Origin: Escherichia coli
Lineage (GTDB): Bacteria > Pseudomonadota > Gammaproteobacteria > Enterobacterales > Enterobacteriaceae
Reading direction: 5' to 3' (one strand)
DNA length: 64,000 nucleotides
Assembly (NCBI RefSeq): GCF_003334335.1
Contig: NZ_QOWQ01000030.1
Shown here: in pieces, positions 42,939-42,957 of the stretch
Layout of the letters: every line of letters begins with the position of its first letter
How positions within the stretch are numbered: the first letter of the stretch is position 1
Program-made: the position numbers and the translations under genes
Notes under the pieces: generated by a model
What the model was told of the DNA's origin: nothing
Databases searched by the model: none
Seen by the model: only the letters and a program-made list of their open reading frames with translations

Positions 42939-42957
42939 AGTATAGGTCGGACCAGCT
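42939..42957. promoter_or_regulatory. FadR operator upstream of fadL
   Basis: agtataggtcggaccagct; its reverse complement agctggtccgacctatact matches the recalled FadR consensus (ctggtccgacct core); about 110 bp upstream of the fadL ATG. Confidence 0.65.

Follow-up and report, generated by a model that had tools for sequence, protein, structure and literature searches.

Two tandem sites upstream of fadL in Escherichia coli match the known FadR operators of this promoter

The 64 kb stretch of E. coli chromosomal DNA analyzed here (the window) carries two neighboring sequences upstream of fadL which we assign, with a probability of about 97%, to the pair of FadR operators already known from the fadL promoter of this species. 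No observation contradicts an assignment to FadR. The analysis establishes sequence identity, statistical distinctness, and the conservation of both sites and of the spacing between them. The fadL sites are textbook knowledge for the E. coli fad regulon, already known base for base, and in that respect the finding is real but ordinary; its value is mainly that of a correct annotation. The sites were reportedly footprinted by DiRusso et al. in 1993, and OL1 and OL2 are said to be the names given to them by DiRusso, Metzger, and Heimert in 1993. The only mildly new point is a comparative pattern which suggests that the site closer to fadL, operator 2, is the older one.

Results

Identity and location of the two sites

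String matching located the 19-mer agctggtccgacctatact as a single exact copy on the minus strand at 42957..42939, and the string cagaccagtg on the plus strand at 42924..42933. The window is oriented opposite to the K-12 map, with yfdF and fadL on the minus strand and yfcZ, fadI, fadJ, and fabB on the plus strand. The open reading frame at 41491..42837 (minus strand) encodes FadL, and its start at 42831 was taken from the RefSeq annotation of a K-12 MG1655 derivative with an identical promoter region. The A of the fadL ATG is thus at 42831 and the proximal edge of agctggtccgacctatact is 108 bp away from it, so the distance of about 110 bp given in the first-pass annotation holds. Both FadR sites are found in the promoter region, 86 to 126 bp 5' of the ATG. 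The second site had been placed 10 bp upstream of the first, which is incorrect; it lies downstream, toward fadL, at a distance of 5 to 7 bp (5 bp between the two strings as originally read and 7 bp between the canonical 17-mers). The features of the promoter are as follows.

42941..42957, minus strand: FadR operator 1 of fadL, AGCTGGTCCGACCTATA; exact string, inside probe fadL-FadR-site1, -25..-9
42917..42933, minus strand: FadR operator 2 of fadL, CACTGGTCTGATTTCTA; exact string, inside probe fadL-FadR-site2, -1..+16
42939..42944, minus strand: probable -10 hexamer TATACT; inferred, -12..-7, overlaps operator 1
42964..42969, minus strand: probable -35 element TTGCAA; inferred, -37..-32, 19-bp spacer to TATACT
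42932 +/-1, minus strand: fadL transcription start; back-calculated from published CRP site distances
43068..43112, minus strand: CRP-cAMP probe of fadL (site 1); published probe, mapped here, center of the 22-bp site at about -157.5
41491..42831, minus strand: fadL coding sequence, long-chain fatty acid outer-membrane transporter; open reading frame with RefSeq start

Statistical distinctness of the sites in the window

The FadR consensus is aaCTGGTCnGACC(T/A)Gtt (PMC9329746). Operator 1 agrees with it at 13 of the 16 specified positions, including 10 of 10 in the core CTGGTCNGACC, and forms the expected 17-bp imperfect palindrome. The FadR box given in the first-pass annotation proved accurate. 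Operator 2 agrees at 11 of 16 positions (five mismatches), with a perfect left half-site and a degenerate right half, such that only half of the palindrome is present.

When the window was scanned for the consensus with up to three mismatches, the only sites recovered were fadL operator 1 and a site at fadI. This corresponds to three strand-matches as compared to 0.52 expected, a number that was reached in 4 of 100 shuffles. The perfect core CTGGTCNGACC is unique in the window and located at operator 1. The half-site string CTGGTCNGA is present in three copies, counting both strands, two of which are the fadL operators, on the same strand and 24 bp apart.

A position-weight matrix, which had been proposed as a check, was trained on five 17-mers contained in published probes (one each for fadBA, fabA, and fabB and two for fadD), with fadL purposely omitted. 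With this matrix, operator 1 ranked 2nd of 127,968 positions when the matrix was used as given and 9th when it was symmetrized, which bears out the assignment. Above it were the fabB training site (as given) or fabB, fadI, and two likely chance matches (symmetrized). Matrix matches at 48978..48994, 1098..1114, 30182..30198, and 44598..44614 are within long open reading frames or do not have the full core, and were treated as chance. Operator 2 ranked between 31 and 179 with the same leave-fadL-out matrix and would not be called on sequence alone.

The low rank and the five mismatches of operator 2 are what would be expected if operator 1 were the sole working FadR site and the second element were a chance half-site, conserved because of requirements at the transcription start or the mRNA 5' end. 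About one bare CTGGTCNGA per window is expected by chance, and operator 2 overlaps +1, where other constraints act. The binding and conservation data given below nevertheless argue against this explanation, which we consider very unlikely.

Published binding to both sites

The two sites are each contained in a gel-shift probe listed in Table 2 of Feng and Cronan 2012, namely fadL-FadR-site1-F (GCAACATTCCAGCTGGTCCGACCTATACTCTCGCC) and fadL-FadR-site2-F (CTCTCGCCACTGGTCTGATTTCTAAGATGTACCTC) (PMC3460868). The probes align to the window with 100% identity, at 42967..42933 and 42940..42906, respectively. The tandem arrangement suggested in the first-pass annotation is supported by these exact probes and agrees with the published fadL promoter. 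Sequence, gene, promoter, and arrangement are identical to those of the E. coli K-12 fadL operators, both 35-nt probes matching base for base. Feng and Cronan describe the sites as 8 bp apart, as compared to the 7 bp given here, a difference in where the site edges are drawn (PMC3460868).

The affinity of FadR was equivalent for both fadL probes, with binding essentially complete at 50 nM, and binding to both sites was lost in the presence of 25 to 50 μM oleoyl-CoA (PMC3460868). The operator 2 probe does not contain the operator 1 core. That FadR bound it equally well and was released from it by acyl-CoA is difficult to reconcile with a chance half-site. The authors also note the agreement of their gel shifts with DNase I footprints obtained earlier by DiRusso et al. 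1993 (PMC3460868), a comparison that the first-pass annotation had called for. In addition, FadR W60G, a mutant in DNA binding, did not shift either fadL probe, and fadL expression was approximately 2-fold higher with this variant (PMC4259882).

The regulatory consequence of binding is modest. A fadL-lacZ fusion increased 2- to 2.5-fold with a fadR deletion and likewise with oleate (PMC3460868). The operator had been called strong, a term which is appropriate for the sequence match but not for the regulatory effect, given that loss of fadR derepresses only to this extent. A 4-fold increase of fadL by RT-PCR is cited from Cho et al. 2006. Our literature search found no data on in vivo occupancy of fadL by FadR (ChIP-exo). 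FadR binding at both sites, release by acyl-CoA, and modest repression are established by published experiment. According to published work, the fadL promoter also integrates activation by CRP-cAMP, repression by ArcA, repression by OmpR, and the small RNA RybB.

Position of the operators in the promoter

The functional CRP site of fadL, site 1, which bound CRP-cAMP, is centered 157 bp 5' of the fadL start, and a predicted CRP site that did not bind is centered 57 bp 3' of it (PMC3460868). When mapped to the window, the centers of the two probes are at 43089.5 and 42876, and both therefore give a transcription start at 42932, a value that rests on the distance statements in one paper (PMC3460868). 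Relative to this back-calculated start, operator 1 occupies -25 to -9 and operator 2 occupies -1 to +16. DiRusso et al. 1993 reportedly place the fadL FadR sites at these same positions in their abstract. The 3' part of operator 1 provides the first four bases of the TATACT hexamer, and operator 2 covers the transcription start. FadR sites generally overlap -10 or +1 (PMC9329746). The exact start and the assignment of the -10 and -35 elements are probable.

The fadL promoter was missed by a generic sigma-70 promoter scan, in keeping with its known requirement for CRP-cAMP. The long spacer of 19 bp likewise fits an activator-dependent promoter. The single match that the scan returned, TTGCCA-18-GATCAT at 43023..42994, was no better than those in shuffles and was rejected.

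Conservation across Enterobacterales

Using a degenerate DNA pattern for the N-terminus of mature FadL (AGFQLNEF), 120 loci were collected, with one genome per species. Of these, 84 orthologues were retained based on at least 60% identity over the first 150 residues and sufficient upstream DNA. Approximately a quarter of the 120 loci were excluded as FadL paralogues or unrelated sequences with less than 60% identity over the same residues.

Operator 2, scored as CTGGTCNGA at the expected position, was found in 78 of the 84 fadL promoters from other Enterobacterales, and the operator 1 core, scored as GGTCNGACC, in 69. The operators are 24 bp apart, center to center, in 64 of the 65 loci that carry both. 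In a MAFFT alignment, operator 2 was the block with the highest information content (1.70 bits per column), followed by operator 1 (1.33), the upstream flank (0.88), and the 7-bp spacer between the operators (0.84). Both sites are therefore conserved among orthologues above their flanks.

Part of this conservation could have other sources. For operator 1, the conservation of CCTATA could be owed in part to the -10 hexamer instead of FadR, and for operator 2, requirements at the start site or the mRNA 5' end could contribute. Taken to its limit, the conserved sequence would be the core promoter itself (-10 and discriminator), with an incidental likeness to a FadR box and with indirect control by FadR. 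The right half of operator 1 does include the start of TATACT, which is kept at the -10 position in 70 of 84 orthologues (TATAAT in a further 6; TTGCAA is kept in 75), and chance alone would supply about 0.5 matches per window to the 17-mer consensus at three mismatches. However, the GGTC and GACC of operator 1 are fixed among the orthologues while the central "n" is freely variable, and the GGTCNGACC palindrome is kept in most of them despite this free center. The GGTC of the left half, at -21 to -18, lies in the promoter spacer, which is usually unconserved for sigma-70, and its conservation favors a protein-binding site over simple preservation of the promoter. Given also the published direct binding of FadR to the exact fadL oligonucleotides (PMC3460868), we regard an incidental resemblance as extremely improbable.

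The pattern of presence and absence among genera also bears on operator 2. In two Dickeya and four Edwardsiella loci, operator 2 is kept and operator 1 is unrecognizable; in Photorhabdus, operator 2 is kept and just a shifted half of operator 1 is found. Retention of operator 2 where operator 1 is missing, together with its status as the most conserved block of the promoter, weighs further against a chance half-site. Operator 2 of these three genera reads A/C/GACTGGTCTGATTTGTY over the start, and its right half is nearer to the consensus (GATTTGTT/C) than that of E. coli (GATTTCTA). Many genera have the right half GATTTGTT, with two to three mismatches, which is again not what a chance half-site would show. 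Accordingly, we retain the reading of two FadR operators. The description of the second site as weaker is valid for its sequence score only; its binding in vitro is equal to that of operator 1 and it is the best-conserved block. Operator 2 thus binds well, is the better conserved, and scores poorly, and therefore matrix thresholds alone would miss real FadR sites.

These comparisons leave us evenly divided over a history in which operator 2 is both older and under tighter constraint across Enterobacterales, operator 1 arose later on the -10 region, and operator 2 drifted in Escherichia and Salmonella. If this is the case, operator 1 may have been added in Enterobacteriaceae, Erwiniaceae, Serratia, and Hafnia, being absent from Dickeya and Edwardsiella, and the drift may be represented by the right half GATTTCTA of Escherichia and Salmonella as compared to GATTTGTT elsewhere. 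Even if true, this history would refine a well-known system only slightly, and it may already have been described in comparative-genomics studies.

Conservation within E. coli

A 601-bp stretch around the site, annotated as the yfcZ-fadL intergenic region in E. coli genomes, was found in every one of the 5426 complete E. coli genomes, with at least 99% identity in 5409. For the 76-bp promoter core, 651 of the 5426 genomes are 95 to 99% identical. Among the variants sampled, operator 1 differs at position 2 (42956, G/T) and at the central base, position 9 (42949, C/A), only, with strain N96 and the E. coli genome at locus L059 as examples; one base 5' of operator 1 also varies. The polymorphisms within operator 1 are located at exactly the two positions that the consensus tolerates.

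Discussion

A model for FadR repression of fadL

FadR is a GntR-family dimer, and binding of acyl-CoA to its C-terminal domain releases it from its operators (PMC9329746). When long-chain acyl-CoA is lacking, one FadR dimer occupies operator 1, over the spacer and the -10 element (-25 to -9), and a second dimer occupies operator 2, over the transcription start (-1 to +16). The two dimers would jointly hinder binding of RNA polymerase or formation of the open complex. Imported long-chain fatty acids are converted to acyl-CoA via FadD, and acyl-CoA-bound FadR leaves both sites, resulting in derepression of fadL. With dimers on the -10 region and on the start, occlusion of RNA polymerase is the simplest mechanism, and it is from the position of the sites that we infer steric occlusion as the mode of repression. 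The mildness of repression can be attributed to the need for FadL itself in inducer entry; the rationale of the authors is that tight repression of uptake genes would block inducer formation altogether.

Comparison with other FadR-controlled promoters

The fadD promoter resembles that of fadL in having two FadR sites, modest repression (2- to 3-fold), and the same rationale of leaky expression of a transport gene. The fadD sites, however, are 68 bp apart and one is a more than 10-fold weaker binder, whereas the fadL sites are 24 bp apart, center to center, and equal. The fadBA (ATCTGGTACGACCAGAT) and fadI (AAGTGGTCTGACCTGAT) promoters share with fadL a 17-bp palindromic FadR box over the core promoter and repression that is relieved by acyl-CoA, but each has a single site that is nearer to the full palindrome than the fadL sites. 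Published repression is 5- to 10-fold for fadBA and fadH as compared to 2- to 2.5-fold for fadL-lacZ. The fabA and fabB sites belong to the same box family and are bound by the same protein; there, FadR is located 5' of -35 and activates, while at fadL it is located over -10 and +1 and represses (PMC9329746).

Other elements in the window

The FadR box of fadI noted above, AAGTGGTCTGACCTGAT, is on the minus strand at 43625..43641, with two mismatches, 27 bp 5' of the fadI ATG (43668). It is the best non-training matrix match in the window and is consistent with the published control of fadIJ by FadR. The FadR activator site of fabB, GGCTGATCGGACTTGTT, is at 62449..62465, ahead of the fabB coding sequence at 62532..63752 (plus strand), and is identical to the published EMSA probe. 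The palindrome GCGTACAAGTGTACGC, which follows the FadR site in the fabB probe, is presumably the FabR site. With two sites at fadL, one at fadI, and one at fabB, the 64 kb contain four known FadR sites, which are useful positive controls for motif scans.

The fadL leader contains a perfect inverted repeat, TGTTAC-N5-GTAACA, at 42868..42884 on the minus strand (+49 to +65). In 85 Enterobacterales fadL promoters its arms are nearly invariant and its five central bases are variable. This element corresponds to "CRP site 2", which CRP-cAMP did not bind (PMC3460868). In the predicted fold of the leader it pairs into a 6-bp hairpin, and it could act as an RNA hairpin or as a site for another protein such as OmpR. 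The whole fadL 5' leader folds no better than shuffles (z = -0.66), and a search of Rfam returned no RNA family in the fadL leader or the intergenic region.

Elsewhere in the window, a tRNA-Arg(CCT) gene at 37754..37828 (minus strand; Rfam match at 37757..37828) is argW by position. Beside it, the region from 14 to 38 kb aligns to most E. coli genomes as one uninterrupted block and holds core genes, among them dsdX, emrY, evgS, oxc, and ypdA. K-12 has the CPS-53 prophage next to argW, which the source strain appears not to carry.

Directly 5' of operator 1 and over the -35 region, strong conservation is also seen for the sequence AGAAACATACTTGCAACATT at 42960..42977 (minus strand), which looks like a pair of 10-bp repeats with AACAT in each and presumably resembles OmpR boxes. 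The literature on fadL describes four footprinted OmpR sites, as well as an ArcA site that lies 5 bp away from FadR site 1.
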